From an uncultured Dehalococcoidia bacterium (GTDB lineage Bacteria > Chloroflexota > Dehalococcoidia > Lucifugimonadales > UBA3495), in the NCBI GenBank assembly GCA_958295765.1, contig CATQHB010000002.1, positions 398,424 to 462,423 on the forward strand: 64,000 bases of DNA. The letters are read 5' to 3'. Below are positions 5,803-64,000 of this stretch, in pieces. The notes below the pieces were generated by a model that was given only the letters and a program-made list of their open reading frames with translations, ran no database searches and was not told the origin of the DNA. Every line of letters begins with the position of its first letter. Position 1 is the first letter of the stretch. Both the position numbers and the translations under genes were made by a program.

Positions 5803-5902
5803 CCCGTCGTTCCGGCGAAAGCCGGAATCCAGGAAATCCCACGGAAAAGAGCGTGCCGGCTACCGAGGGTTCTGGATTCCGGCTTTCGCCGGAACGACGG
5901 TT
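5803..5902. repeat. Family B inverted-repeat element (copy B1)
   Basis: CCGTCGTTCCGGCGAAAGCCGGAATCCAGGAA ... CTGGATTCCGGCTTTCGCCGGAACGACGG. Each arm contains its own CCGGCGAAAGCCGG mini-hairpin. Confidence 0.7.
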
Positions 5903-9037: not shown

Positions 9038-9070
9038 ACCGTCGTTCCGGCGAAAGCCGGAATCCAGGAA
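9038..9070. repeat. Family B element, left half only (B2)
   Basis: ACCGTCGTTCCGGCGAAAGCCGGAATCCAGGAA, abutting a family D element. Confidence 0.55.
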
Positions 9071-14091: not shown

Positions 14092-14193
14092 AACCGTCGT
14101 TCCGGCGAAAGCCGGAATCCAGGAAATCCCCGGGGTAAAGAGCGATACAGCTATCGAGGATTCTGGATTCCGGCTTTCGCCGGAACGACGGTT
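14092..14193. repeat. Family B inverted-repeat element (B3)
   Basis: Full-length copy with both arms and the same internal orientation as B1 and B5. Confidence 0.7.
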
Positions 14194-34031: not shown

Positions 34032-34133
34032 AACCGTCGTTCCGGCGAAAGCCGGAATCCAGAACCCTCGGTAGCCGGGTCGTGCTTTTCCGGTAGGATT
34101 TCCTGGATTCCGGCTTTCGCCGGAACGACGGTT
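34032..34133. repeat. Family B element (B4), internal segment inverted relative to B1/B3/B5
   Basis: Same arms. The core reads AACCCTCGGTAGCCGGGTCGTGCTTTTCCGGTAGGATTTCC. Confidence 0.7.
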
Positions 34134-43798: not shown

Positions 43799-43899
43799 CA
43801 CCGTCGTTCCGGCGAAAGCCGGAATCCAGGAAATCCCCCGGAAAAGAGCGGGCCGGCTATCGAGGATTCTGGATTCCGGCTTTCGCCGGAACGACGGTG
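43799..43899. repeat. Family B element (B5)
   Basis: Full copy between cca and the ASST array. Confidence 0.7.
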
Positions 43900-43954: not shown

Positions 43955-45775
43955 CTAAGGGGTATCGTAAAGTTCGATTGGCGCCCCCGGAGTCAAGTCC
44001 AGCCCTTGCAGACCCGGGTAGTCCGGCGCATACCGATAAGCGCGGTACACCTGATTAGCCGGTACTACTCTACCACTTCTCAGTTCTTCCGTCGGCACCG
44101 GCTCGCCTTGACGCACCGGGCCGTCGTTGGTCGTCGGGTTGACGTACTGCCAAACCGTTTTGCCGGCCGGCGTTACCTCAAAAAGTGTGCCGTTCACCCC
44201 GTCGCAAATCAGCGTGTTGCCGTTGGGCAGCCGTTGCGCCCCGGAGATGTAAGGGGCGTAAAAGTCGCCGGGCGTCGGGGCGGTATAAGTCCATACCGGT
44301 TCTCCCGGCGCATAAGCCAGGCCGGAGTCCAGCCGGTAATTGGCCCCGTCCACCGGCGGAACAATCTCATCTACCGACGAGTAAGTGCGGGGGAGAGCCG
44401 TTGACTCGTCGCCATTGTTGAAAATGAGGATGTTTCCGGCGCCGGGCTGGCCGGGGGGAATCCATTGCGGATTATGCTGCGAGAAAAGTTGCTGGTCAGC
44501 AATCGTCCCGGCCCGATAGGCGAGGGGGTTGCCCCAGCGGTACAGCAAGTCGCCCCCCTGGCCGCTATTGCCGCCGCCGGAGCCGGCCGCCTCGGCTCTG
44601 GTGGTACTGTGGTCGATAATCCACACTTCGCCGAAATTACTAGGCGACAGCACGATCTGGTCCAATTCCGGGCTATAGTCGATTCCGTTGCTGTGTATCC
44701 AGTCCGACGGGTCTGAATAATTGGTTGTCTCGGCAAGGCGGAAGTTAAGGTCAATCAGCTCCGGATGCTCGGCCACCACGCCGTAATTGGCCTTGCCGGG
44801 GTCAAAGTCCTGAATCAGATGATCCCACGCCGACCATTCCCAAACGATTTCGCAGCTTGCCGTCCCGGTAATTCGGGCTTCCACGATATGCGGCGCCAGC
44901 AAGCCATTACCGTCAGGGTCGATGAATTCCGGGTTGGCGCCGGCGGCGATGGCCTCCTCCGGCGTTTTACGTTGCCGGGACAGTAGCAGCACGTTCCCGT
45001 TGGGCATTTTAAGGAAGTCATGATGCGGATTCCCCTGAGTACAGTTCCAAAGGATGTTCCCGTTCCAGTCAATTTCCTGCACATAGCGGCCCTGCTCGGT
45101 ATTGACTAAAGTCAGCAGATTGCCATTCTCCAGCAACTTTGCTAACGCGGCATTGCCCGCCAACTCCCACCGGTGCACCTCCCGCCCCTGATTATCAATC
45201 AGGTAAAACGTCTTGGTGCGGCGTTTATTAAATAAAGTATAGCCCTCAAATGCCTCCGGCTCATTCAGGAACAACCCGACGGTCCTGGTGTCCGGCGTCG
45301 GGGTAACGGTGGGCGCAGGGGTTGGCGTGGTGGTGGGTGTAGGGGCCGGCGTAGCGGTAGGTGTAGGAACCGGCGTAGCGGTAGGTGTAGGAACCGGCGT
45401 AGCGGCAAGTGTAGGAACCGGCGTAGGGGTAGGTGCAGGAACCGGCGTAGGGGTAGGTGCAGGAACCGGCGTAGCGGTAGGTGTAGGTATAAGGGCCGGC
45501 GTAGCGGCAGGTATAGGGGCCGGCGTAGCGGTAGGTACAGGAGTTGGCGTAACAACCGGCGCCGCCGTTGGGCGGGGCGTTGACCTATCGACCGGTTCCG
45601 CGTTGCTGCAAGCCAGTAGTGAAACTACTGCTACGCCAAGCAGGACCGCAACGGCGACAATCCGGCGCAATTTACTGGTTGCGCCGCGTCGGAAAAATCG
45701 GAAAGGGGAGTAAGAAACATCCTTGTGTGCAGCCGTTTCAGCAAATCCATTGCGCCGCGTCAACCTTATCCGCAA
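43955..45775 (-). CDS. Arylsulfotransferase (ASST)-like beta-propeller lipoprotein, paralog 1
   Basis: Signal and lipobox VVSLLAC|S, Pro/Thr linker, then [95 protein letters not shown]. Start codon uncertain. Confidence 0.6.
   Translation of the reverse strand: MRIRLTRRNGFAETAAHKDVSYSPFRFFRRGATSKLRRIVAVAVLLGVAVVSLLACSNAEPVDRSTPRPTAAPVVTPTPVPTATPAPIPAATPALIPTPTATPVPAPTPTPVPAPTPTPVPTLAATPVPTPTATPVPTPTATPAPTPTTTPTPAPTVTPTPDTRTVGLFLNEPEAFEGYTLFNKRRTKTFYLIDNQGREVHRWELAGNAALAKLLENGNLLTLVNTEQGRYVQEIDWNGNILWNCTQGNPHHDFLKMPNGNVLLLSRQRKTPEEAIAAGANPEFIDPDGNGLLAPHIVEARITGTASCEIVWEWSAWDHLIQDFDPGKANYGVVAEHPELIDLNFRLAETTNYSDPSDWIHSNGIDYSPELDQIVLSPSNFGEVWIIDHSTTRAEAAGSGGGNSGQGGDLLYRWGNPLAYRAGTIADQQLFSQHNPQWIPPGQPGAGNILIFNNGDESTALPRTYSSVDEIVPPVDGANYRLDSGLAYAPGEPVWTYTAPTPGDFYAPYISGAQRLPNGNTLICDGVNGTLFEVTPAGKTVWQYVNPTTNDGPVRQGEPVPTEELRSGRVVPANQVYRAYRYAPDYPGLQGLDLTPGAPIELYDTP
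45280..45586 (-). repeat. Pro/Thr/Ala-rich linker built from ~24-bp imperfect tandem repeats (paralog 1)
   Basis: Iterated GGCGTAGCGGTAGGTGTAGGAACC-type units on the plus strand, giving [17 protein letters not shown]... Confidence 0.65.
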
Positions 45776-45862
45776 AGCTCAAACAGCCTCCTCACACCCG
45801 GTATTGGAGCAGGAATTATGGTAATAGTCAGCAACGAACTCGTCAAGGCGGTATTGCCCGGC
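45776..45862 (-). promoter_or_regulatory. Conserved 5' module of ASST paralog 1 (putative promoter plus RBS)
   Basis: Minus strand reads TTGACG (45846-45841), 17 nt, TACCAT (45823-45818), ... GAGGAGG (45793-45787). It is near-identical upstream of all five paralogs. Confidence 0.35.
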
Positions 45863-47623
45863 CTAGGGGGTATCGTAAAGTTCGATTGGCGCCCCCGGAG
45901 TCAAATCCAGCCCTTGCAGACCCGGGTAGTCCGGTGCATACCGGTAGGCGCGGTACACCTGATTAGCCGGTTGTTGCCTACCACTTCTCTGTTCTTCCGT
46001 CGGCACCGCCTCGCCTTGACGCAAAGGGCCGCTGGTGGTCATCGGGTTAACGTACTTCCAAACCGTTTTGCCGGCCGGCGTTACCTCGAAAAGTGTACCG
46101 TGGGGCCCGTCGCAAATCAGCGTGTTTCCGTTGGGCAGCCGTTGCGCCCCGGAGATATAAGGGGCGTAAAAGTCTTCGGGCGTTGGGGCGGTATAAGTCC
46201 ATACCGGTTCGGCCGGCGCATAAGCCTGGCCGGAGTCCAGCCGATAGTTGGCCCCGTCCACCGGCGGAACAATCTCATCTACCGACGAGTAAGTGCGGGG
46301 GACATCCCAAACCCCAATGCCATTGTTGAAAATGAGGATGTTGCCGGCGCCGGGCTGGCCGGGGGGAATCCATTGCGGATTATGCGACGAGAAAAGTTGC
46401 TGGTCATCAAGCGTCCCGGCCCGATAGACGCGGGGGTTGCCCCAGCGGTACAGCAGGTCGCCCCCCATGCCGCTGTTTCCGCCGCCGGAGCCGGCCGCCT
46501 CGGCCCTGGTGGTGCTGTGGTCGATAATCCACACTTCGCTGAAATTACTAGGCGACAGCACAATCTGGTCCAATTCCGGGTTATAGTCGATTCCATTGCT
46601 GTGTATCCAGTCCGTCCAGTCCGGAGGGTCTGTCCCGCCGCCGGCGTTGGGAAGGTGGAAGTTAAGGTCAATCAACTCCGGATGCTCGGCCACCACCCCG
46701 TAATTGGCCTTGCTCGAATCAAAGTCCTGAATCAGATGATCCCACGCCGACCATTCCCAAACAATTTCGCAGCTTGTCGGCCCGGTGATTCGGGCTTCCA
46801 CAATGTGCGGCGCCAACACGCCCTTCTCGCCGATGTATTCCGGGTTGGCGCCGGCGGCGATGGCCTCCTCCCGCGGTTTACGTTGCCGGGACAGCAGCAG
46901 CACGTTCCCGTTGGGCATTTTAAGGAAGTCATGATGCGGATTCCCCTGAGTACAGTCCCACAGGATATTCCCATTCCGGTCAACTTCCCGCACATAGCGG
47001 CCCTGCTCGGTATTGGCGAAAGTCAGCAGATTGCCATTCTCCAGCAACCTGGCGAACTGGGCCGCAGCCGCCAACTCCCACCGGTGCACCTCCCGCCCCT
47101 GATTATCAATCAGGTAAACCGTTTTGGTGCGGCGTTTATTAAATAAAGTATAGCCGACAAATGCCTCCGGCTCATTCAGGAACACCCCGACGGTCCTGGC
47201 GGCCGGCGTCGGCGTAGCGGTGGGTTCAGGAGTTGGCGTCGGGGTAGGTGCCGGCGTCGGCGTAGTGGTAGGTATAGGGGCCGGCATAGCGGCAGGTGCC
47301 GGGCTGGGAGCCGTGGTAGCAACGGCAACGGTTGGGCGCAAGGTCGGCGCCGGCGTAGCGGTAGGCGTAGGGGCCGGCGTAGCAGTAGGCGCGGGGGTAA
47401 CAACCGGCGCCGCCGTTGGGCGTGGCGTTGACCTATCGACCGGTTCCGCGTTGCTGCAAGCTGGTAGTGAAACTACTACTGCGCCAAGCAAGACCGCAAC
47501 GGCGACAATCCGGCGCAATTTACTGGTTGCGCCGCGTCGGAAAAATCGGAAAGGGGAGTGAGAAACATCCTGGTGTGCCGCCGTTTCAGCAAATCCATTG
47601 CGCCGTGTCAACCTTATCCCCAA
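45863..47623 (-). CDS. ASST-like beta-propeller lipoprotein, paralog 2
   Basis: Same architecture and motifs as paralog 1. Confidence 0.6.
   Translation of the reverse strand: MGIRLTRRNGFAETAAHQDVSHSPFRFFRRGATSKLRRIVAVAVLLGAVVVSLPACSNAEPVDRSTPRPTAAPVVTPAPTATPAPTPTATPAPTLRPTVAVATTAPSPAPAAMPAPIPTTTPTPAPTPTPTPEPTATPTPAARTVGVFLNEPEAFVGYTLFNKRRTKTVYLIDNQGREVHRWELAAAAQFARLLENGNLLTFANTEQGRYVREVDRNGNILWDCTQGNPHHDFLKMPNGNVLLLSRQRKPREEAIAAGANPEYIGEKGVLAPHIVEARITGPTSCEIVWEWSAWDHLIQDFDSSKANYGVVAEHPELIDLNFHLPNAGGGTDPPDWTDWIHSNGIDYNPELDQIVLSPSNFSEVWIIDHSTTRAEAAGSGGGNSGMGGDLLYRWGNPRVYRAGTLDDQQLFSSHNPQWIPPGQPGAGNILIFNNGIGVWDVPRTYSSVDEIVPPVDGANYRLDSGQAYAPAEPVWTYTAPTPEDFYAPYISGAQRLPNGNTLICDGPHGTLFEVTPAGKTVWKYVNPMTTSGPLRQGEAVPTEEQRSGRQQPANQVYRAYRYAPDYPGLQGLDLTPGAPIELYDTP
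47188..47434 (-). repeat. Pro/Thr/Ala-rich linker repeats (paralog 2)
   Basis: [16 protein letters not shown]... Length differs from the other copies. Confidence 0.6.
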
Positions 47624-47710
47624 AGCTCAAACAGCCTCCTCGCACCCGAGATTGGAGCGGGAATTATGGTAATAGTCAGCAGTGAAGTCGTCAAGGCGGT
47701 ATTGCCCTGG
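47624..47710 (-). promoter_or_regulatory. Conserved 5' module of ASST paralog 2
   Basis: Same CGTCAAGG...TTATGGTAATAGTCAGCA...CCTCCTC blocks (plus-strand reading). Confidence 0.35.
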
Positions 47711-49483
47711 CTAGGGGGTATCGTAAAGTTCGATGGGCGCCCCCGGAGTCAAGTCCAGCCCTTGCAGACCCGGGTAGTCCGGCGCATATCGATAGGCGCG
47801 GTACAACTGATTAGCCGGCCATTCTCCATCATCTCCCTGTTGTTCCAGCGGGACGCCTTGACGCAAGATGCCGTCGCTGGTCGCCGGGTTGGCGTATTTC
47901 CAAACCGTTTTGCCGGCTGGCGTTACCTCGAAAATCGTGCCCCGCGTCCCATAGCAAATCAGGGTGTTTCCGTTGGGCAGCCGTTGCGCCCCGGAGATAA
48001 AACGGGTGTAAAAGTCGCTGGGCGTGGCGGCGGTATAAGTCCATACCGGTTCGGCCGGCGCATAAGCCTGGCCGGGATCCAGCCGGTAGTTGGCCCCGTC
48101 CACCGGCGGGGCAAGCTCATCTACCGACGAGTAATTGCGCCGGAAATCCGGGAACTCCCGGCCGTTGTTGAAAATGAGGATGTTGCCGGCTCCGGCCAGT
48201 CCGGGGGGAATCCAGTGCGGATTATGGGGCCAGAATAGTTGCTGATCATCGGGCGTACCGGCGCGATAAGCGCGGGGGTTGCCCCAGCGGTACAGCAGGT
48301 CGCCCCCCCTGCCGCTATTGCCGCCGCCGGAGCCGGCCGCCTCGGCCCTGGTGGTGCTGTGGTCGATAATCCATATTTCGCTGAAATGACGGGGCGACAG
48401 CATAATCTGGTCCAATGCCGGGTTATAGTCAATTCCGTTGCTGTGGATCCAATCCGCCGAGTTATCCCGGGCGACTGCCTCGGAAAGGCGGAAGTTGAGG
48501 TCAATCAACTCCGGGCGCTCGGCCACCACGCCGTAATTGGCCTTGCTCGAATCAAAGTCCTGAATCAGATGATCCCACGCCGACCATTCCCAAACAATCT
48601 CGCAGGTTGCCGGCCCGGTGGTTCGGATTTCCACAATATGCGGCGCCAGCAAGCCGTCGGGGGTGATGAATTCCGGGTTGGCGCCGGCGGCGATGGCCTC
48701 CTCCGGCGTTTTAATTTGCCGGGACAGGATCAGCGCGTTCCCGTTGGGCATTTTAAGGAAGTCATGATGCGGAATCCCCGGAGTACAGTCCCAAAGGGCG
48801 TCCCCGTTCCGGTCAATTTCCCGCACACTGCCCTCCGGCACAGTTTGATCCGTCTCGAGGCCCGGCTCTCTGGCGAAAGTCAGCAGATTGCCATTCTCCA
48901 GCAACTTGGCGAACAGGGCCACATATTCCAACTCCCACCGGTGCACCTCCCGCCCCTGATTATCAATCAGGTAAATCGTATTGGTGCGGAATTTATTAAA
49001 TAAAGTATAGCCCTCAAATGCCTCCGGCTCATTCAGGAGCAGCCCGACGGTCCTGGCGGCCGGCGTCGGGGTAGCGGTAGGCTCAGGGGGCGGCGTGGCG
49101 GTAGGCGCAGGAACCGGCGTAGCGGTAGGTACAGGGGCCGGCGTAGCGGTAGGAGTAGGGGCCGGCGTAGGGGTAGGCTCAGGAACCGGCGTGGCGGTAG
49201 GTGTAGGAACCGGCGTAGCGGTAGGTACAGGAACCGGCGTAGCGGTAGCCGCCGGCGTAACAACCGCCGCCGCCGTTGGACGGGGTGTTGACCTTTCGAC
49301 CGGTTCCGCGTTGCTGCAAGCCAGTAGTGAAACTACCGCCAGGCCAAGCAGGACCGCAACCGCGACAATCCGGCGCAACTTGCTGCTTGCGCCGCGTCGG
49401 AAAAGTCGGAAAGGAGGGTGAGAAACATCCTTGAGTGCCGCCGTTTCAGCAAATCCATTGCGCCGTGTCAACCTTATCCTCAA
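47711..49483 (-). CDS. ASST-like beta-propeller lipoprotein, paralog 3
   Basis: Same architecture, with divergent loops (e.g. FAREPGLETDQTVPEGSVREIDRNGD). Confidence 0.6.
   Translation of the reverse strand: MRIRLTRRNGFAETAALKDVSHPPFRLFRRGASSKLRRIVAVAVLLGLAVVSLLACSNAEPVERSTPRPTAAAVVTPAATATPVPVPTATPVPTPTATPVPEPTPTPAPTPTATPAPVPTATPVPAPTATPPPEPTATPTPAARTVGLLLNEPEAFEGYTLFNKFRTNTIYLIDNQGREVHRWELEYVALFAKLLENGNLLTFAREPGLETDQTVPEGSVREIDRNGDALWDCTPGIPHHDFLKMPNGNALILSRQIKTPEEAIAAGANPEFITPDGLLAPHIVEIRTTGPATCEIVWEWSAWDHLIQDFDSSKANYGVVAERPELIDLNFRLSEAVARDNSADWIHSNGIDYNPALDQIMLSPRHFSEIWIIDHSTTRAEAAGSGGGNSGRGGDLLYRWGNPRAYRAGTPDDQQLFWPHNPHWIPPGLAGAGNILIFNNGREFPDFRRNYSSVDELAPPVDGANYRLDPGQAYAPAEPVWTYTAATPSDFYTRFISGAQRLPNGNTLICYGTRGTIFEVTPAGKTVWKYANPATSDGILRQGVPLEQQGDDGEWPANQLYRAYRYAPDYPGLQGLDLTPGAPIELYDTP
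49033..49294 (-). repeat. Pro/Thr/Ala-rich linker repeats (paralog 3)
   Basis: [37 protein letters not shown]... Confidence 0.6.
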
Positions 49484-49570
49484 AGCCCGGACAACCTCCC
49501 CGCACCCGAGATTGGAACGGGAATTATGGTAATAGTCAGCAACGAACTCGTCAAGGCAGTATTGCCCAGG
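49484..49570 (-). promoter_or_regulatory. Conserved 5' module of ASST paralog 3
   Basis: Same conserved blocks. RBS variant GGGGAGG. Confidence 0.35.
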
Positions 49571-51283
49571 CTAAGGGCTGTCGTAAAGTTCGATTGGCGC
49601 CCCCGGAGTCAAGTCCAGCCCTTGCAGACCCGGGTAGTCCGGCGCATACCGGTAAGCGCGGTACATCTGATTAACCGGTATTTCTATTTCTACACCACCT
49701 ACCCAGTCCAATTTTTGCAACGGCACCGGCTCGCCTTGACGCAAAGGGCCGTCGCTGGACGTCGGGTTGACGTACTGCCAAACCGTTTTGCCGGCCGGCG
49801 TTACCTCAAAAAGCGTACCGTTTACCCCGTCGCAAATCAGCGTGTTGCCGTTGGGCAGCCGTTGCGCCCCGGAGATGTAAGGGGCGTAAAAGTCGCCGGG
49901 CGTGGCGGCGGTATAAGTCCATACCGGTTCGGCCGGCCCATAAGCCTGGTCGGGGTCCAGCCGATAGTTGGCCCCGTCCACCGGCGGAACCAGCTCATCT
50001 ACCGACGAATAACCGCGCCGGAAATCCGGGAACTCGTCGCCATTGTTGAAAATGAGGATGTTGCCGGCGCCGGGCCGGCCGGGGGGAATCCATTCAGGAT
50101 TATGGGGCCAGAATAGTTGCTGGTCGTCGGCCGTCCCGGCCCGATAGGCGCGGGGGTTGCCCCAGCGGTACAGCAGGTCGCCCCCCTTGCCGCTATTTCC
50201 CCCGCTGGAGCCGGCCGCCTCGGCCCGGGTGGTGCTGTGGTCGATAATCCACACTTCGCTGAAATGACGGGGCAACAGCATAATCTGGTCCAGTTCCGGG
50301 TTATAGTCGATTCCGTTGCTGTGGATCCAGTCCATCGGGTCTAACCAGTCGGCTACCTCGGCCAGGCGGAAGTTAAGGTCAATCAACTCCGGGTGTTCGG
50401 CCACCACGCCGTAATTGGCCTTGCCGGGGTCAAAATCCTGAATCAGATGATCCCACGCCGACCATTCCCAAACGATTTCGCAGCTTGCCGGCCCGGTGAT
50501 TCGGGCCTCTACAATATGCGGCGCGAACAAGCTATCGGCGGCGATGAAGTCCGGGTTGGCGCCGGCGGCGATGACCGCCGCGGCGGGTTTATGTTGCAAG
50601 GACAGCAGCAGCACGTTCCCGTTGGGCATTTTAAGGAAGTCATGATGCGGGACGCCCTGCATACAGTCCCAAAGGATGTTCCCGTTCCGGTCAACTTCCC
50701 GCACACTGCGCTCCGGTTCCCGGTCCAGGTCTCTGGCGAAAGCCAGCAGATTGCCGTTCTCCAGCAACCTGGCGAACAGGGTCCGGCGCTCCAACTCCCA
50801 CCGGTGCACCTCCCGCCCCTGATTATCAATCAGGTAAAGCGTCGGGGTGCCCCGTTTATTAAATAAAGTATAGCCGTCAAACGCCTCCGGCTCATTCAGG
50901 AGCACCCCGACGGTCCTGGCGGCCGGCGTCGGGGCAGCGGTGGGCGCCGGGGTTGGCGTAAGGGTAGGCTCAGGGATCGGCGTAGCGGTGGGTGTCGGGG
51001 CCGGTGTAGGGGTAGGTGTCGGAACCGGCGTAGGGGTAGGCTCAGGAACCGGCGTAGGGGTGGGCGCCGGGGTGGGCGCCGGGGTAACAACCGGCGCCGT
51101 TGTTGGACGGGGTGTTACCCTCTCGACCGGCTCTGTGTCGCTGCAAGCCAGCAGGGAAACTACTGCTACGCCAAGCAGGACCGCAACCGCGACAATCCGG
51201 CGCAATTTACTGGTTGCGCCGCGTCGGAAAAGTCGGGGGAGCGGGGGACATACTTGAGCCGGTAGCCGTTTCAGCAAATCCAT
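49571..51283 (-). CDS. ASST-like beta-propeller lipoprotein, paralog 4 (the only copy with the conserved ATG in frame)
   Basis: Starts [11 protein letters not shown]...[14 protein letters not shown].., lipobox LLAC|S. Same propeller motifs. Confidence 0.6.
50902..51118 (-). repeat. Pro/Thr/Ala-rich linker repeats (paralog 4)
   Basis: [34 protein letters not shown]... Confidence 0.6.
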
Positions 51284-51395
51284 TGCGCCGCGTCAACCTT
51301 ATCCGCCAGGCTCGGCCAACCTCCTCGTACCCGAGATTGGGGCGGGATTTATGGTAATAGTCAGCAACAAAGTCGTCAAGGCGGGATTGCCCGGC
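51284..51395 (-). promoter_or_regulatory. Conserved 5' module of ASST paralog 4
   Basis: Same conserved blocks. Confidence 0.35.
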
Positions 51396-53207
51396 CTAGG
51401 GGGTATCGTAAAGTTCGATGGGCGCCCCCGGAGTCAAATCCAGCCCTTGCAGACCCGGGTAGTCCGGCGCATACCGGTAAGCGCGGTACACCTGATTAAC
51501 CGGTATTTCTATTTCTCCAGCAGTTGCCCACACCAATCTTTCCATCGGCACCGGCTCGCCTTGACGCAAAGGGCCGTCGCTGGACGCCGGGTTGACGTAT
51601 TTCCAAACCGTTTTGCCGGCCGGCGTTACCTCAAAAATCGTGCCGTTCACCCCGTCGCAAATCAGCGTGTTGCCGTTGGGCAGCCGTTGCGCCCCGGAGA
51701 TGTAAGGGGCGTAAAAGTCGCTGGGCGTTGCGGCGGTATAAGTCCATACCGGTTCGGCCGGCCCATAAGCCTGGCCGGAGTCCAGCCGGTAGTTGGCCCC
51801 GTCCACCGGCGGAACAATCTCATCGATCGACGAATAACCGCGCAGGAAATCTGTGAACTCAAGGCCATTGTTGAAAATGACGATGTTGCCGGCCCCGGCC
51901 TGGCCGGGGGGAATCCATTCAGGATTATGCTGCCAGAATAGTTGCTGGTCGTCAGGCGTCCCGGCGCGATAGGCGCGGGGGTTGCCCCAGCGGTAGAGCA
52001 GGTCGCCCCCCATGCCGCTATTGCCGCCTTCGGAGCCGGCCGCCTCGGTCGTGGTGGTACTATGGTCGATAATCCACACTTCGCTGAAACGACGGGTGGA
52101 CAGCACAATCTGGTCCAATTCCGGGTTATAGTCGATTCCGTTGCTGTTTATCCAATCCGCCGGGTGCCCCCGGGCGGCTAACTCGTCAAGGAGGTAGTTA
52201 AGGTCAATCAACTCCGGATGCTCGGCCACCACGCCGTAATTGGGCTTGCTCGAATCAAAGTCCTGAATTATATGATCCCACGCCGACCAATCCCAAACGA
52301 TTTCGCAACTGGCCGGCCCGGTGGGTCGGGCCTCAACGATACGCGGCCCCATCAAGCCACTACCGTCAGGGTCGATGAAGTCCGGGTTGGCGCCGGCGGC
52401 GATGACCTCCTCGGGGGTTTTAAATTCCCGGCCCAGCAGCAGCATATTCCCGTTGGGCATTTTAAGGAAGTCATGATGCGGCAGGCCATGAGCACATTCT
52501 GCGAGGATGTTCCCGTTCCGGTCAATTTCCCGCACACTGCGCCGCGGGGTGTGGTCCGGGTATATGCCGAGAGTCATCAGATTGCCATTCTCCAGCAACT
52601 GTGCGAACAGGGCCTCATAGTCCAACTCCCACCGGTGCACCTCCCGCCCCTGATTATCAATCAGGTAAAACGTATTGGTGTGGCGTTTACTAAATAAAGT
52701 ATAGCCCTCAAATGCCTCCGGCTCATTCACGAACAACCCGACGGTCCTGGCGACCGGCGTCGGGGTAGCGGTAGGCTCAGGGGCCGGCGTAGCGGTGGGC
52801 GCAGGGGGTGGTGTCGCGGTAGGTGCAGGAACCGGCGTAGCGGTAGGTGCAGGAACCGGCGTAGCAGTAGGTACAGGAACCGGCGCAGCGGTAGGTACAG
52901 GAACCGGCGCAGCGGTAGGTATGGGGGCCGGCGTAGCGGTAGGTGCAGGAACCGGCGTGGCGGTAGGTACAGGAGTTGGCGTAACAACCGGCGCCGCCGT
53001 TGGGCGGGGTGTTGACCTATCGACCGGCTCTGTGTTGCTGCAAGCTGGTAGGGAAACTGCTGCTACGCCAAGCAGGAGCGCAACGGCGACAATCCGGCGC
53101 AATTTACTGGTTGCGCCGTGTCGGAAAAATCGGAAAGGGGAGTAAGCAACATCCTGGTGTGCCGCCGTTTCAGCAAATCCATTGCGCCGCGTCAACCTTA
53201 TCCTCAA
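51396..53207 (-). CDS. ASST-like beta-propeller lipoprotein, paralog 5
   Basis: Same architecture, with lipobox-like SLPAC|S. Confidence 0.6.
   Translation of the reverse strand: MRIRLTRRNGFAETAAHQDVAYSPFRFFRHGATSKLRRIVAVALLLGVAAVSLPACSNTEPVDRSTPRPTAAPVVTPTPVPTATPVPAPTATPAPIPTAAPVPVPTAAPVPVPTATPVPAPTATPVPAPTATPPPAPTATPAPEPTATPTPVARTVGLFVNEPEAFEGYTLFSKRHTNTFYLIDNQGREVHRWELDYEALFAQLLENGNLMTLGIYPDHTPRRSVREIDRNGNILAECAHGLPHHDFLKMPNGNMLLLGREFKTPEEVIAAGANPDFIDPDGSGLMGPRIVEARPTGPASCEIVWDWSAWDHIIQDFDSSKPNYGVVAEHPELIDLNYLLDELAARGHPADWINSNGIDYNPELDQIVLSTRRFSEVWIIDHSTTTTEAAGSEGGNSGMGGDLLYRWGNPRAYRAGTPDDQQLFWQHNPEWIPPGQAGAGNIVIFNNGLEFTDFLRGYSSIDEIVPPVDGANYRLDSGQAYGPAEPVWTYTAATPSDFYAPYISGAQRLPNGNTLICDGVNGTIFEVTPAGKTVWKYVNPASSDGPLRQGEPVPMERLVWATAGEIEIPVNQVYRAYRYAPDYPGLQGLDLTPGAPIELYDTP
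52727..53018 (-). repeat. Pro/Thr/Ala-rich linker repeats (paralog 5)
   Basis: PTATPVPAPTATPAPIPTAAPVPVPTAAPVPVPTATP... Confidence 0.6.
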
Positions 53208-53296
53208 AGCTCAAACAGCCTCCTCACACCCGGTATTGAAACGGGAATTATGGTAATGGTCAGCAGTGAATTCGTCAAGGCGGTATTCCTCCAGGG
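53208..53296 (-). promoter_or_regulatory. Conserved 5' module of ASST paralog 5
   Basis: Same conserved blocks. Confidence 0.35.
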
Positions 53297-53419
53297 CAAC
53301 CGTCGTTCCGGCAGGGCAACCGTCGTTCCGGCGAAAGCCGGAATCCAGAACCCTCGGTAGCCGGCCCGCTCTTTTCCCGTAGGATTTCCTGGATTCCGGC
53401 TTTCGCCGGAACGACGGTG
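53297..53419. repeat. Family B element (B6) with a duplicated left terminus, core in B4 orientation
   Basis: CAACCGTCGTTCCGGC occurs twice, followed by the full element. Confidence 0.65.
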
Positions 53420-53555
53420 GGCGGGAACGACGGTGGGCGGGAACGACGGTGGGCGGGAACGACGGTGGGCGGGAATGACCGGGGTGTGCGGGAACGACGG
53501 TGGGCGGGAATGACCGGGGTGTGCGGGAATGACCGGGGTGTGCGGGAATGACCGG
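53408..53555. repeat. Tandem array of 16-bp (GGAACGACGGTGGGCG) and 19-bp (GGAATGACCGGGGTGTGCG) units
   Basis: Five 16-bp and three-plus 19-bp units, contiguous with no spacers. The units resemble the termini of families B (..GGAACGACGG) and C (..GGAATGAC). Confidence 0.75.
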
Positions 53556-53654: not shown

Positions 53655-54287
53655 ATGGCTGAAGCGGATTTCCGAACCTATTACGACTTCCGTTGACCCT
53701 TCGTATATAACGCTGCCATGTGGCTGGCGAAGGTACGAGCAACCACCGGACAAGAGGTCAACGTGGACTGGCAGCCCTTCTCCCTGGAGCAGGTGAACAG
53801 CGACAAGGGAGAGGATTTCAAGTATTGGGAGCAGCCGGGCGCCACTGACGGCACCGACAATACCCTCCTGGCCCACCGGGCCGGGCTGGCCGCCAAGCGG
53901 CAGGGCAAGGATGCCTTTGAGTCCTTCTTTATGGCCCTGTTGAAACTGCGCCACGAAGAGCGGAAGAGCCTGACCGACCCGGCGGTGATGGAAGAGGCGG
54001 TCGCCAATTCCGGCATCGACATGGCCCGGTTCCGGGAAGACCTGGCCGACCCCGACCTGCTGCGGGAGATTGGCGAGAGCCATACCGTCGCGGTGGAGGA
54101 GTACGGGGCCTTTGGCGTGCCTACTTACATCTTCCCCAACGGCAGCACCGCCTTTGTGAAGATGCACATTCCTCCCGATGAAGAGGCCGGGGAGATTTAC
54201 GAGTCCCTGACCCGGGTGATTACCGAGGCCCGGCACGTGGGCGAGGTCAAGCGCCCGTCGCCCCCCTGGCCCCACGGCCTCATCTAG
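53655..54287 (+). CDS. DsbA/FrnE-like thioredoxin-fold oxidoreductase with in-frame TGA (53694-53696) at the redox-Cys position; candidate selenoprotein, otherwise a pseudogene
   Basis: AGGAGGAGG RBS (53639-53647) then ATG 53655. The frame reads MAEADFRTYYDFR-TGA-PFVYNAAMWLAKV... and continues into track ORF 53718..54287, which carries DsbA features (VDWQPFSL, FGVPTYIF). Confidence 0.6.
53698..53733 (+). promoter_or_regulatory. SECIS-like stem-loop immediately 3' of the in-frame TGA
   Basis: Lower stem CCUUCG/CGAAGG (6 bp), 7-nt 5' internal loop, upper stem C-(G bulge)-C-U.U-GCC/GGC, apical loop AUGU with G and U 24-25 nt after the UGA. Confidence 0.45.
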
Positions 54288-56224: not shown

Positions 56225-58645
56225 ATGATTGACCTGGTAGTCTGGCTGCTGCTTATTGAGTTGATGGGGCTGGTGGCCTTTCCCCTGGCCTTTGCCCTGT
56301 TCCGGTGGCTGCCCGACCGGGGCTACGCCCTGAGCAAGCCCCTGGCCCTGCTGCTGGCCGCCTATCTGCTCTGGCTGCTGGGCTTGACCCAACTAATCCC
56401 CAACTCCCCGCTGACCATTATCGCCATCCTGCTGTTGGGCGCGGCGGTGTTCGGCTGGCTTTACTACCGGCGCTGGCCCGAACTGGAACACTTCGTAACT
56501 ACCCAATGGCGGGTCATCCTGGTCGCCGAGGCCGTATTTTTAGTCCTGTTCCTGGGCTGGTGCGCGGTTTTGTCCGAGTTTCCGGGCATCAACCACACCG
56601 AAAAGCCGATGGACTTCGCCTTTCTGAACGGCATCCTGCAAAGCCGGTTCTTTCCCCCGGAAGACCCCTGGTTGGCCGGCCACTCCATCAGCTATTACTA
56701 CTTCGGCCACTTTATAATGGCCCTGCCGATGCAGTTGGCCGGCATTTCCTCCGGCGTAGGCTACAACCTGGCCTTGGCGCTGATTCCCGCCCTGGTGGGA
56801 ATGGCCGCCTTTGGCTTGACCTACAACCTGATCCGGCTGGCCGGGGGTGGTGGCAAGGCGGCGGTGGGTTTTGGCCTGGTGGCCCCGGTGCTGATAACGG
56901 TAATGGGCAACCTGGAGGGGGGGCTGGAGTTTGCCCGGCTGCGCGGCTGGGGCGGCGCCGGGTTCTGGGAATGGGTGGGCATCAAGGGACTGGAGAGCGG
57001 CGGGGCCGGCGGTTCCGGTATTTTCCCGGACAGCGTCTGGTGGTGGTGGCGGGCCACCCGGGTGATTGACACCCTGGAGGCCGGCCGGAGCCTGGACTAT
57101 ACCATCACCGAGTTTCCCTTTTTTAGCTTTATCCTGGGCGACCTGCATCCCCACGTATTGAACCTGCCTTTCCTGCTGCTGGCGCTGTCTTTAGGGCTAA
57201 ACTTGTATGCGGCGCCGGAGCGTCCCGGCCCTGGCTGGCTGCTGCGCCACCCCTGGCAGGCCGGGGCTATCGCCCTGTCCCTGGGGGCTTTGGCTTTTAT
57301 CAACTCCTGGGACTTTCCGGTGTACGCCGCAATTTTCGGGGCGCTGCTGCTGATTAAGAGCTACGCCGGCCGGTTGGGCGGGCCGGGCGGGAACGGCGAA
57401 TTGTCATCCGACCAGGGAAACGCGGTTATGGGCCGGGCTTTCCGGTACACCGGCTTGATGCTGGCGCCCCTGTTGCTGGCGGCGGTGTTGCTGTTCCTGC
57501 CCTTTTACCTCACCCTGAGCACCCAGGTCTCCGGCGTCCTGCCCCTGCTGGGGCCGGGGACGCGCCCCTTCCTGTTCTTTCTGGTAATGGGCCTGCCTAT
57601 CCTGCTGGGGCTGGGGTTGCTGCTGCACCAACTGAGGGGACTGCCCCGGCCCGGCCCGGCCGACGGCCCGGCGATTGTCCTGGTGCTGGTGGTAGTTCTG
57701 GCGCCCCTGCTGCTGTGGATTGGCCTGGCCTTGACTTGGGGCGCCCTGACTCAGGGCCTGGAGTCAATCGCCCAACGGGTAGGCTGGCGGGCGCTGGCAA
57801 CCTTGCCAATGCTAGCTGTCGCGGGGCTGGCCGGATTCTGCGCCCTGCAACGGGCGGGCCGCGACCGGGAGGCGCTGCTGGCCTTCCCCCTGCTGCTGTT
57901 GGCCGCCGCCGCCTATCTGCTGGCCGGGGCCGAACTATTCCACCTGGCCGACTTCTTTGGCAACCGGATGAATACGGTGTTCAAGGTCTATTACCAGGCT
58001 TGGCTGCTGCTGGGGATTGCCGGCGGTTTTGGGCTATACTACGCTTATTCCCGCCGGGCCGCGCTGGGGAAGTGGGGACGGCTCAGTCATTACGTTTGGG
58101 GCGGCGGGGTAGCTATCCTGCTGGTCGTTTCCTTATATTACCCGCTGGGGGCAACCCTGGACCGCACCGGACTGCTCCGGGAGCATCACACCTGGCAGGA
58201 CAATACGCTGGACGGGCTGGCTTACATCAGCAACAATAATCCGGCGGAATACGCCGCAATCCGGTGGCTGCGGGATGAGGCCGGGGCCGGCCGGATTGTT
58301 GAAGCGGTGGGCGACGATTACTCGGACTACGGCAGAATTTCCGCCGCCACCGGCCGGCCTACGCCGCTGGGCTGGAAGGGCCACGAACACCAGTGGCGGG
58401 GCACCACTGCCATCTTTGAGGGTCGGGAAGCCGCCGTAGCCCAAATCTACCAGAGCGACGACCTGGAAACGGTGCGCCAACTCCTGGCGGACTATAATAT
58501 CCGTTACGTCTATCTGGGCCACCGGGAACGGGCCAAGTACGATCTAAGCCGGCTGCCCAACCGGGGCGGCTTGCTGAAAACCGCCTTTGAGCAAGACGGC
58601 GTAGTTATCTATGAAATAGCGGCAGGCTTTGCGCCGGATGAATGA
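56225..58645 (+). CDS. Chlor_Arch_YYY (DUF2298, TIGR03662-like) polytopic membrane protein
   Basis: Hallmark [10 protein letters not shown] motif, many TM segments, and a soluble C-terminal domain. Confidence 0.8.
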
Positions 58646-61304
58646 GTCAATGACCGTACCGACTATACGGGCCATATCGCCCGGGGATGACGCGCCGGCG
58701 GTGGAGACGCCGCCGGCAACGCCGCCCTTCAGCCAGTCCTGGGTAGGCCGGGCTTGGTTATACCTAGCCCGGAGCCGGCCCGGCTGGTACGAAGCCGGGT
58801 TCCTCGGCCTGATGCTGGTCGCCCTTGCCCTGCGCCTGTGGGAACTGGGCGGGCGCGTGATGCACTATGACGAGGCCATCCACCTCTACTACTCCTGGCA
58901 GCTTTCCAACTTTCAGGAGTATATTCATTCTCCCTGGATGCACGGGCCGTTCCAGATTGAGTTGACCGCCCTGCTGCTGCAACTGCTGGGGGACAGCGAC
59001 TTTACCGCCAGGCTGGGCTACGTCCTGTTCGGGACGGCGTTGGTGGGGCTGCCCTGGTTCCTGCGGCAGCACCTGGGCCGAACCGGGGCAATGCTGACCG
59101 GACTATTGCTTGCCATCTCCCCGTCGCTGCTGTATTTCAGCCGGTTCGGGCGCAATGACATCATCATGGCCTTTCTGGCCGCCGCCCTGTTTATCCTGAT
59201 GTGGCGGTATTTCCGGGAAAACAAGGCCCGCTACCTGTACCTGGCGGCGGCGGCGCTGGCCTTGATGTTCGCCACCAAGGAAACCGCCTACATCATCACC
59301 CTGACCTTTGGAATGTTGGCCTTCCTGACCGCCCTGGTCGCCGGGGCCAGCCGGCTGGGGTCGGTGGACAACCGTTCCCCCTTTCCCGGGGCGGCCGGGT
59401 TTCTGATTCTGCTGATTACCCTGACCATGCCCCAATGGTCGGCGGGGGTGGCCCTGTTTCAGGATTGGCTGGGGCTGACCCTGGTGAACCGGGACGGGGT
59501 AACTGACGGGATTGTGGGCGCGCCCCACTGGGAGGCGCCCTTTCTGCCGCTGCCCCTGTTCGCCGCCCCCTGGTGGCTGCATGGGCTGGCCCTGCTGCTG
59601 CTGCTGAGCGGCGGCCTGCTGTACGCCGGGAAAGCCTCCGGGCAATGGCTGAGCCGGTTGGCGGTAGGCGCGGTTCCGGTGGCGTTGGCCGGGGCCGCGG
59701 CCCTGGCCCTGCTGCGTCCCCTGGGCGGCGCGGCCGACCTGGTAATCGCCGGGGCCGCCGTCCTGTCCGCCGGCGGTTTTATGTGCTGGCGCTACTCCTG
59801 GAGCCGGGGAGTATTGCTGACTCTGGGGCCGTTCCTGATTGCGTTGGCCTACTTCGCCCTGCTTTTCCCGGTGGTAAAAGTGGATACCCTGCTGCATGAG
59901 GTATTGCCCGGTGGTATCCAGGTAGCCGTGGCCGACAACGCCGTCCCGGTGAACTTTGCGGTGGCCGGCGGCGCGCTGGCGGTGGCCGGGCTGGTTTCCC
60001 TGGCCCTGGGCCTGCGCTGGAAAGGCGGGGTATGGCTGCTCTGCGCCCTCATCTTTTACTGCATCTGGACTACCCTTTACACCACCTACTTCAACAACTA
60101 CGCCGGGGTTTTCAGCGGGGCCTGGCAGGGGTTGGGCTACTGGATTTCCCAGCAGGACGTGGCCCGGGGCAATCAGCCCTGGTATTACTACTTCGTCGGC
60201 CTGTCGGTGTACGAGTTTCTGCCGGTCATCTTTGGCCTCATCGGGGCCGTAGTTTTTGTGAAACGGCGGGACGGGTTCGGGCTGGCCCTGACCTGCTGGG
60301 CCGGGGTCAACCTGCTGGCCTATACCGTCGCCAGTGAAAAGATGCCCTGGCTGCTGGTCAACATCACCCTGCCCTTTATTTTCCTGGCCGGCAAGCTGCT
60401 GGGCGAGTTGGCCGAGGGGGTTCCCTGGCGGCGCATCGGAGCGGGGGGGCGGCTATTGCTGTTGCTGCCGCTAACGGCGCCGCTGCTGGTGGCGGGCGCC
60501 CTTTACGCGGCAATCGCCTACGTGAACCCGGAGCCGCCCTTTGCCCTGGACTGGGCAATGGCCCTGGCGGTGGCGGCCCTGCTGGCCCTGGCTACCGCCT
60601 GGCTGGTGCGGCGTGCCGGCGCCGATGCTGGTATGGCCCTGGCCGGCTTGGGAGTTGCCATTCTGCTGTTGGGGCTTACGACGTGGGCCGCCTTCCGGGC
60701 CGCTTATACTTATGACGATTCCAACCGGGAAATTCTGGTTTACGCCCAGGGCAGCGCCGACTTGTTAGAAACCTATCGGGAATTTGATGCCGACCTATGG
60801 GCCGCCGGCGACCAAGCCGGGTTAGCGTCGCCGGCGCAGGTGGACTATGATCTATGGTATCCACTACAATGGTACGTCCGGCACCAGCAGGAGGCCGGGT
60901 TGCTCCGTTTCACCTGTTTCCGGGATGAGGACGGCGCCGGCGGTTGCCGGGCGTTGGATGGAGACATAGAGGCCAGCGGGCTGCTCCTGGCGGCCCACCA
61001 CCGGGCCGCCGGCGCCGGGAGCCTGCCCGACTACCGGCAGACCGGCCCCCGGCGCAATCTGCTCTGGTTCCCCGAAACCTACCGGCGGCCCGGCGAGCAC
61101 CGGCAATCCGAGGAGTTTCAAGAGGAGTTCGTCAAAGACCTGATTTTCTTTAAGGATGCGGCCAGCGACCGGGAAGCCTGGGACGCCGCCCTGAACTACC
61201 TGCTGTTCCGCCAACTGGATTCGGACTGGTTCACTTCGGAATACTATACCTACCGGCCCCGGGCTGAGACCGGGACGCTCCTCACCCCCGACCTATCTCC
61301 CTGA
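58638..61304 (+). CDS. GT-C-fold (PMT/ArnT-like, TIGR03663-like) membrane glycosyltransferase-family protein
   Basis: Polytopic protein with early loop motif RVMHYDEAIH. ATG overlaps the YYY stop (ATGAATGA). Confidence 0.65.
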   Translation: MNESMTVPTIRAISPGDDAPAVETPPATPPFSQSWVGRAWLYLARSRPGWYEAGFLGLMLVALALRLWELGGRVMHYDEAIHLYYSWQLSNFQEYIHSPWMHGPFQIELTALLLQLLGDSDFTARLGYVLFGTALVGLPWFLRQHLGRTGAMLTGLLLAISPSLLYFSRFGRNDIIMAFLAAALFILMWRYFRENKARYLYLAAAALALMFATKETAYIITLTFGMLAFLTALVAGASRLGSVDNRSPFPGAAGFLILLITLTMPQWSAGVALFQDWLGLTLVNRDGVTDGIVGAPHWEAPFLPLPLFAAPWWLHGLALLLLLSGGLLYAGKASGQWLSRLAVGAVPVALAGAAALALLRPLGGAADLVIAGAAVLSAGGFMCWRYSWSRGVLLTLGPFLIALAYFALLFPVVKVDTLLHEVLPGGIQVAVADNAVPVNFAVAGGALAVAGLVSLALGLRWKGGVWLLCALIFYCIWTTLYTTYFNNYAGVFSGAWQGLGYWISQQDVARGNQPWYYYFVGLSVYEFLPVIFGLIGAVVFVKRRDGFGLALTCWAGVNLLAYTVASEKMPWLLVNITLPFIFLAGKLLGELAEGVPWRRIGAGGRLLLLLPLTAPLLVAGALYAAIAYVNPEPPFALDWAMALAVAALLALATAWLVRRAGADAGMALAGLGVAILLLGLTTWAAFRAAYTYDDSNREILVYAQGSADLLETYREFDADLWAAGDQAGLASPAQVDYDLWYPLQWYVRHQQEAGLLRFTCFRDEDGAGGCRALDGDIEASGLLLAAHHRAAGAGSLPDYRQTGPRRNLLWFPETYRRPGEHRQSEEFQEEFVKDLIFFKDAASDREAWDAALNYLLFRQLDSDWFTSEYYTYRPRAETGTLLTPDLSP

Positions 61305-63965: not shown

Positions 63966-64000
63966 CTGGATTCCGGCTTTCACCGGGACGACGGTTGCTT
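63966..64000. repeat. Family B element, right arm (B7, degenerate, at window edge)
   Basis: CTGGATTCCGGCTTTCACCGGGACGACGGTT. Confidence 0.5.

Follow-up and report, generated by a model that had tools for sequence, protein, structure and literature searches.

A stable five-gene array of predicted lipid-anchored arylsulfotransferase-like enzymes in a Dehalococcoidia genome, with a catalytic domain that appears to be shared across phyla

The window analysed here, a stretch of 64,000 nucleotides of contig CATQHB010000002.1 from an uncultured Dehalococcoidia bacterium, carries a tandem array of five genes (copies A to E, Table 1) whose products resemble the bacterial arylsulfotransferase ASST. As the first-pass annotation of this DNA had it, the five open reading frames (ORFs) lie head to tail on the minus strand and encode proteins of 570-606 aa. 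They recur with a spacing of 1800-1924 bp, and protein identity to copy A is 79-84%. Genes for a DsbA-like protein, RNase III and FtsY flank the array on one side, and those for a CCA-adding enzyme and an alcohol dehydrogenase flank it on the other. Five copies bounded by the same flanking genes are also present in each of two circular long-read contigs of 3.39 Mb (ENA sample ERZ19489113), which are collinear with the window at ~95% DNA identity. A 21.6-kb contig likewise bears the array (five genes within its fetched 7.8-kb stretch), and members of the 90% cluster of copy C lie on ~ten contigs of 3.0-3.4 Mb. Since the array recurs on three further long-read contigs of close relatives, the number of five copies stands and is not an artefact of assembly.

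Each array protein consists of a hydrophobic signal with a lipobox, a ~100-residue Pro/Thr/Ala/Val linker and a ~440-residue catalytic domain. By inspection, the lipobox L-(L/P)-A-C followed by S ends the signal sequence in all 15 copies of the three strains (the window and the two circular contigs), and the extended motif LL(L/P)AC-S and the linker are present in all five window copies, in keeping with the lipoprotein signal and Pro/Thr linker noticed earlier. The proteins are thus predicted to be lipid-anchored and surface-exposed. The linker is encoded by a 24-nt (8-codon) tandem repeat of 5.5-8.9 units in four copies and by a 48-nt unit repeated 2.1 times in copy B, and its length varies both among copies and among strains.

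Every copy, the first copy E included, is preceded by an upstream module in which a promoter-like site (TTGACG-N17-TACCAT) is followed by a GGAGG and a ~110-nt leader. Both promoter-like hexamers are unchanged across the 15 copies, and a ~40-nt leader block, GGATAAGGTTGAC(G/A)CGGCGCAATGGATTTGCTGAAACGGC, is near-invariant, with one substitution and one variable position. The block is more conserved than the coding sequence (examples of the leader at 45700-45810, 47545-47660 and 53130-53245) and includes a conserved ATG. In four of the five copies this ATG is out of frame and would start an upstream ORF of 38 codons that overlaps the signal peptide. The intergenic module had been described as essentially identical across copies; it is common to them, but at ~85% identity. 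No intrinsic terminators were found between array copies, folding of the conserved leader RNA gave no significant structure (z=+0.86), and an Rfam scan of the whole window returned no match. The start codon is ambiguous among three candidates: a TTG 11 nt past the GGAGG, the conserved ATG, which because of a net 2-nt indel is in frame in copy D only, and an internal invariant TTG from which a textbook 20-residue lipoprotein signal ending in LLAC would begin.

The catalytic domains of all five copies match Pfam family PF05935 (Arylsulfotrans; E ~1e-20, 71-76 bits against a gathering score of 24.2 bits) over profile positions ~20-337 of 374, and a profile of 51 family members searched against the PDB matches E. 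coli ASST (3elq/4p04) at E=7e-5. A confident AlphaFold2 model of the copy A catalytic domain (predicted local distance difference test score 84.9, predicted template modelling score 0.88) contains 24 DSSP strands that can be assigned to the six four-stranded blades of a β-propeller. The blades were recognised from two repeated patterns, an A and a B strand joined by an xNGN turn, and a C strand followed by a turn and an xxW D strand. The best solved structures retrieved by Foldseek are the sulfotransferase Cpz4 (9kf6/9kf4, E 5e-15, template modelling (TM) score 0.57) followed by ASST (3ets, E 3.5e-12); TM scores for Cpz4 and ASST are 0.52-0.58, and generic propellers rank below them. The Pfam match, the profile match and the fold together identify the array family as a distant relative of ASST, at ~15-17% identity, in agreement with the ASST-like β-propeller originally suggested. 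The N-terminal seven-stranded β-sandwich that serves as dimerisation domain in the E. coli enzyme is absent, the propeller beginning right after the Pro/Thr linker. NCBIfam holds no model for the family and gave low-complexity matches to the Pro-rich linker only, and literature searches on PF05935, on the array family in sponge symbionts and on the accession numbers found nothing relevant.

Much of the ASST active site can be traced in the array proteins. The residues listed for ASST are His436, His252, His356, Asn358, Arg374 and Thr501 (PMC13426309). In the profile alignment His252 aligns with the second His of an invariant HHD, His356 and Asn358 align with WIHSN, and Arg374 aligns with the Arg of LSPRHF. 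All 15 array copies, and 69 of 73 sequences of the family, have the His of F(W/S)xHNPxW, which aligns one residue before His436. The His252, His356 and Asn358 equivalents are kept in copies A-D, while copy E has Asn at the His356 position, fixed across the three strains. Arg occupies the position of Arg374 in copies C, D and E, and in only 43 of the 73 family members; A and B have Ser there. Its role may be taken over by another Arg, the near-invariant one in QRLPNGNT. The family also has an invariant motif of its own, IIDHS with a Gly-rich stretch, that is without counterpart in ASST and lies partly in a low-confidence, presumably flexible loop of the model.

The differences between paralogs are concentrated around this site. 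With loop faces taken from DSSP strands and general propeller topology rather than from coordinates, 48% of the columns in D-A/B-C loops vary among the five copies as compared with 19% in A-B/C-D loops (Fisher p=5e-6), the extremes being B-C loops (64%) and A-B loops (11%). Gapped columns fall mostly in B-C or D-A loops, the remainder being in the C-terminal segment, and copy C has an 8-residue insertion in the blade-2 B-C loop. The residues equivalent to the ASST active site are found at the N-termini of the inner (A) strands and within a single B-C loop, hence on the D-A/B-C face, so that by strand topology the variable segments do lie on the active-site face as had been conjectured. At the positions of ASST Arg374/His375, copies A and B have Ser-Asn, copies C and D have Arg-His and with it the full ASST-like residue set, and copy E has Arg-Arg in addition to its Asn for His356. 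These states are fixed in all three strains. They define three predicted active-site classes (A/B, C/D and E), which probably differ in substrate range.

Selection on the copies was followed in an alignment of all 15 array genes of the three strains. Between positional orthologs the catalytic domain has a synonymous divergence (dS) of 0.02-0.12 and a ratio of nonsynonymous to synonymous divergence (dN/dS) of ~0.1-0.2 (0.39 in one pair), against a baseline proportion of synonymous differences (pS) of 0.02-0.13 in single-copy flanking genes; between paralogs dS is 0.17-0.25 and dN/dS 0.5-0.68. In the variable loops the proportion of nonsynonymous differences (pN) reaches 0.2-0.3 between paralogs (pN/pS ~1) but only 0.00-0.02 between orthologs. 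A McDonald-Kreitman-type contrast shows the same partition, with nonsynonymous changes making up 70-80% of fixed paralog differences and 35-40% of strain polymorphisms (odds ratios of 3.5-7.2, p<=3e-6, in 10 of 10 paralog pairs). Because the loops are stable between strains and replacements are in excess between paralogs, the paralog-specific residues are taken to be kept by selection. The pattern fits a stable, selected repertoire of specificities and neither dosage nor fast antigenic variation: the first-pass annotation is thereby supported in preferring a repertoire to dosage amplification, and the antigenic alternative that it had also allowed is disfavoured by the near-invariance of the loops between strains.

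Exchange between the copies is more restricted than had been supposed. The first-pass annotation had suggested concerted evolution of the whole scaffold by gene conversion. Genes at the same array position are 93-98% identical in DNA across strains as compared with 82-90% between paralogs, and sequences cluster by position and not by genome; with orthologs closer than paralogs, there has been no wholesale homogenisation since the strains split. Paralogs closer to each other than to their orthologs, the mark of concerted evolution, are not seen overall, and only the signal-peptide region (paralog identity 87.8%, ortholog identity 90.8%) and the unit ends come near this state. In the conserved blocks paralog pS is 0.1-0.3, not near zero. 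The conserved segments quoted as near-identical are all found in the alignment, as is every one of the segments quoted as replaced, yet the last 25 codons are identical in protein only, with a paralog pS of 0.12-0.16.

What survives of concerted evolution is exchange in short tracts. Within single genomes, the pairwise homoplasy index test on the five paralogs gives p=0.005-0.056; on all 15 sequences it gives p<=0.001. An unpolarised tract test for gene conversion proved uninformative, because changes in an ortholog lineage mimic paralog matches, and a polarised test was used instead; it finds runs of 3-8 informative sites at which a copy agrees with a paralog and departs from both of its orthologs, most commonly in the signal-peptide region. 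Over its first 100-150 nt the catalytic domain shares 92-96% identity with another window copy, and the last ~300 nt of copies D and E are 92-97% identical to each other. Ortholog pS is lowest where paralogs differ most in pN (Spearman rho -0.38 to -0.61, p=0.0004-0.01), as would be expected if ectopic exchange imports paralog variants into conserved blocks only. The number of shared polymorphisms (121, with at most 29 expected) is given little weight, because among-site rate heterogeneity partly explains the excess. Short-tract exchange between copies is therefore detectable, mostly at the unit ends.

The low divergence of the scaffold extends well beyond this genome. A scan of species-representative genomes found 59 loci of the family, and homologs at 70-84% protein identity occur in long-read metagenome-assembled genomes (MAGs) labelled Binatia, Latescibacteria, Vicinamibacterales, Bryobacterales, Gemmatimonadota, Nitrospirales, Gammaproteobacteria/Pseudomonadales and Candidatus Entotheonella. 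Two of these that were traced (Nitrospirales and Entotheonella) come from ERZ19489113, the same sample as the relatives of the window. In DNA, the window catalytic domains are 84-92% identical to copies from Vicinamibacterales, Gemmatimonadota, Entotheonella, Nitrospirales and Binatia, at a dS of 0.17-0.36, well short of saturation and in the same range as among paralogs within the array. For copy A, identity to a Vicinamibacterales copy is 92.1%, higher than to any of its sister copies, and copy B is 90.6% identical to a Gemmatimonadota copy. Pairs among the other phyla are closer still (dS 0.08-0.18), including Bryobacterales and Gemmatimonadota (93.8%, dS 0.08), Gemmatimonadota and Entotheonella (93.7%, dS 0.12) and Pseudomonadales and Vicinamibacterales (92-93%); Dehalococcoidia copies, in contrast, are at a dS of ~2.8. 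The cross-phylum DNA homology runs from ~50 nt before the catalytic domain to ~12 nt before the stop codon, and the promoter, signal and linker are particular to the window lineage.

A neighbour-joining tree does not recover the window copies as monophyletic (bootstrap 9), A and B form the sole strong grouping (98), and different phyla are intermixed on very short internal branches, while the nearest neighbour of each window copy alternates along the gene between sister and foreign copies. Tandem sets occur elsewhere too, in one MAG each of Kapaibacterium (five copies), Verrucomicrobiota (four) and Bryobacterales (three). Much of the low divergence of the scaffold probably reflects a recently shared, phylum-spanning gene pool. 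The lineages of this taxon mix have been treated as sponge-associated (PMC8941161); the mix is typical of sponge microbiomes, and a sponge is a candidate host.

Several of the homologous loci have features of their own. Many close homologs (P0012, P0016, P0029, P0038, P0043, P0050, P0086) carry an extra ~130-aa C-terminal domain (MSVSDYL...IRSDWDVYL...FFLHLDPVD.NDLP...GFDNLDF) that is absent from every window copy, and the JGI protein P0074 (986 aa) has two propellers in tandem in one polypeptide. A conserved ORF of ~695-700 aa that has no Pfam match lies downstream of the ASST-like gene in other phyla (Nitrospirales, L063 10001-21986; Entotheonella, L064 10001-13948). In Nitrospirales a 7.2-kb cassette of the ASST-like gene, a 695-aa ORF, a 254-aa ORF, a PMT_2 glycosyltransferase gene and a 277-aa ORF is tandemly duplicated, and the Entotheonella copy is adjoined by an IS66 transposase gene.

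Taken together, these observations are best accommodated by an explanation that we consider probable, if with limited confidence, in which a stable array of selected exo-enzyme paralogs exchanges sequence at its ends and draws on a cross-phylum gene pool. The five genes, each with its own promoter, would encode extracytoplasmic, lipid-anchored enzymes of an uncharacterised subfamily of the ASST (PF05935) family, whose members work independently of 3'-phosphoadenosine-5'-phosphosulfate (PAPS). By homology the most likely chemistry would be ping-pong sulfuryl transfer through a sulfo-histidine intermediate. It would take place outside the cell, where there is no PAPS, from extracellular sulfated donors to phenolic or alcohol acceptors. 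The paralogs diverge chiefly in the D-A/B-C loops of the catalytic face and at two predicted sulfate-binding positions, and since these differences are fixed across strains and enriched in replacements the array is read as a repertoire of specificities maintained by selection. Duplication in place would have involved the entire unit (promoter, leader, signal, linker and domain), with its ends continuing to exchange by short-tract ectopic recombination, and the catalytic core would be a mosaic from a gene pool recently moved among co-resident bacteria of many phyla.

A number of points weigh against this explanation. PAPS-independent transfer through a sulfo-histidine is proposed from sequence and model, at an identity of only ~15-20% to characterised ASSTs. 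The putative nucleophile His is one residue off His436 in the alignment, the Arg374 equivalent is missing from A and B and the His356 equivalent from E, and the β-sandwich of E. coli ASST is not present. The loop faces rest on topology, some of the gene-conversion statistics are inflated by site-rate heterogeneity, and the start codon is ambiguous. In addition the invariant IIDHS motif has no ASST counterpart, so that the chemistry could differ.

This last point leads to the main rival, an unlikely one, in which the proteins are enzymes of another chemistry that uses the DHS/Gly-rich motif, for example hydrolases or lyases whose substrates are sulfated or other compounds derived from the host. 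The poor conservation of Arg374 and the lack of an NCBIfam model for the family are compatible with it, but the two nearest solved structures are both PAPS-independent sulfotransferases, and four or five of the six positions in the ASST active site are retained. A loss of catalysis in some copies is possible. That the propellers are altogether non-catalytic surface binding proteins, adhesin- or lectin-like, that retain an ASST-like fold is a rather improbable rival: A, B and E each lack one predicted sulfate-binding residue, the domains are presented at the surface on long linkers, and propellers that act as binding domains are common among the structural neighbours, yet the His252, His436 and Asn358 equivalents and the family's D-H-S are invariant in the 15 copies and nearly so in the 73 members, and orthologs are under strong purifying selection.

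We consider it similarly improbable that gene conversion within the array homogenises the whole scaffold while the loops diversify fast as an antigenic or host-interaction repertoire. The paralogs do show signs of recombination, the unit ends and signal-peptide region are homogenised, and the loops are the most divergent parts of the proteins. However, the clustering by array position and the paralog pS of the conserved blocks contradict homogenisation, the loop pN between strains is the opposite of an arms-race signature, and the scaffold is just as similar to copies from other phyla as to its sisters. Misassembly or a recent dosage amplification is scarcely credible as the origin of the array. 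Only the repetitive character of the locus speaks for it, and the array is present in the window and three other contigs (five copies in both circular ones), with paralogs that are 10-18% apart in DNA and each under purifying selection. In place of scaffold-wide conversion, the evolution of the array is better read as one of old, selected paralogs that exchange at their ends within a mobile, phylum-spanning gene pool.

A broader reading that joins these elements seems to us plausible, if just short of probable. The catalytic domain would be a mobile, community-wide cassette that has moved recently between at least nine phyla of a single host-associated community, probably that of a marine sponge, with recombination both between genomes and within arrays. 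Each lineage would add its own promoter, export signal and anchor, and the arrays would hold alleles with distinct active sites. If so, the family would be a shared exo-enzyme toolkit for sulfated or phenolic host compounds, and the community-wide sharing would be a clear case of horizontal transfer at the level of a domain, for a function under common selection in the habitat.

Among characterised systems, ASST/AssT of E. coli CFT073 (3ELQ, 3ETS) has in common with the array proteins the extracytoplasmic six-bladed β-propeller, the PF05935 match, the His252, His356 and Asn358 equivalents and a His adjoining His436, with these residues at the starts of inner strands. The window proteins differ in their ~15% identity, in lacking the β-sandwich, and in having the extra invariant DHS/Gly-rich loop and a variable Arg374; whereas E. 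coli ASST is soluble in the periplasm, they are predicted to be lipid-anchored via the Pro/Thr linker and come as five diverged tandem copies. The best structural match, Streptomyces Cpz4 (9KF4/9KF6), an ASST-type sulfotransferase of caprazamycin biosynthesis, is of similar size and also has no β-sandwich, at 15-17% identity. Cpz4 is a cytoplasmic tailoring enzyme encoded inside a biosynthetic cluster, unlike the window genes, which are exported and lie outside any such cluster. With the variable surface lipoprotein loci of pathogens the array shares head-to-tail lipoprotein genes, conserved 5' ends, variable segments and ectopic exchange, but its copies are all intact with promoters of their own, its loops are strain-stable, and it has neither silent cassettes nor a switching mechanism. 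The locus is thus a variant of a known enzyme family and not a new kind of system. It represents a large, uncharacterised ASST branch that is predicted to be lipid-anchored, is linker-borne, without β-sandwich and amplified into arrays, and that appears to have been exchanged recently across many phyla of one microbial community. A handful of gut and soil bacteria are known to have PAPS-independent aryl sulfotransferases, which are sought as biocatalysts; if the array proteins are active, the five natural variants would offer a ready panel of altered active sites.

Table 1. Features of the array and its surroundings, in window coordinates
Feature	Position	Strand	Catalytic domain	Remarks
Copy A	43955-45775	-	43958-45286	606 aa, counted from first TTG
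Copy B	45863-47623	-	45866-47197	586 aa
Copy C	47711-49483	-	47714-49054	590 aa
Copy D	49571-51283	-	49574-50911	570 aa; ATG start; leader with net 2-nt indel
Copy E	51396-53207	-	51399-52748	603 aa
Linker repeat, copy A	45324-45536	-		24-nt tandem repeat
Linker repeat, copy B	47202-47302	-		48-nt unit
Linker repeat, copy C	49067-49252	-		tandem repeat
Linker repeat, copy D	50939-51071	-		tandem repeat
Linker repeat, copy E	52761-52974	-		tandem repeat
Promoter-like TTGACG-N17-TACCAT, copy A	45818-45846	-		
Promoter-like TTGACG-N17-TACCAT, copy B	47666-47694	-		
Promoter-like TTGACG-N17-TACCAT, copy C	49526-49554	-		
Promoter-like TTGACG-N17-TACCAT, copy D	51351-51379	-		
Promoter-like TTGACG-N17-TACCAT, copy E	53250-53278	-		
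Palindromic REP/MITE-like element	43807-43891	.		directly downstream of copy A
Palindromic REP/MITE-like element	53326-53411	.		directly upstream of copy E promoter module
Palindromic element, elsewhere in window	5810-5894, 14100-14185, 34040-34125			half sites 9045-9067, 63966-63988
Short tandem repeats	53408-53555			between array and DsbA-like gene
DsbA-like/Rv2466c-like gene	53655-54287	+		ATG at 53655
DUF2298 and PMT_2-family genes	56225-61304	+		3-8 kb from array

The array is bordered on both sides by an ~85-bp palindromic intergenic element with arms TTCCGGCGAAAGCCGGAATCCAG, of which the window holds at least five and none would be expected by chance. Its further occurrences in the window show that it is not tied to the array, and it looks like a genome-wide repeat similar to repetitive extragenic palindromes (REP) or miniature inverted-repeat transposable elements (MITE). 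Between the array and the DsbA-like gene lie short tandem repeats with periods of 16, 19 and 35 nt (GGGCGGGAACGACGGTG / GGGCGGGAATGACCGGGGTGTGC).

The DsbA-like (Rv2466c-like) gene has a strong ribosome-binding site (AGGAGGAGG) and an in-frame TGA (53694-53696) at the first Cys position of the family's CPxC motif (MAEADFRTYYDFR-[TGA]-PFVYNAAMWLAK). The sequence is identical in two related strains and a hairpin begins 17 nt downstream, and the gene is a candidate for encoding a selenocysteine protein rather than being truncated. A dsbA/dsbL gene adjoins astA in known loci, but the DsbA-like neighbour of the array is unlike these because it is without a signal peptide, and for the same reason it is probably no partner of the exported enzymes.

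Finally, genes for a DUF2298 protein (806 aa) and a PMT_2-family protein (891 aa), both membrane glycosyltransferase-like, lie farther out on the same side. PMT-type enzymes O-mannosylate Pro/Thr-rich lipoprotein linkers in Actinobacteria, and with a PMT_2 gene nearby the array linkers might, speculatively, be glycosylated.

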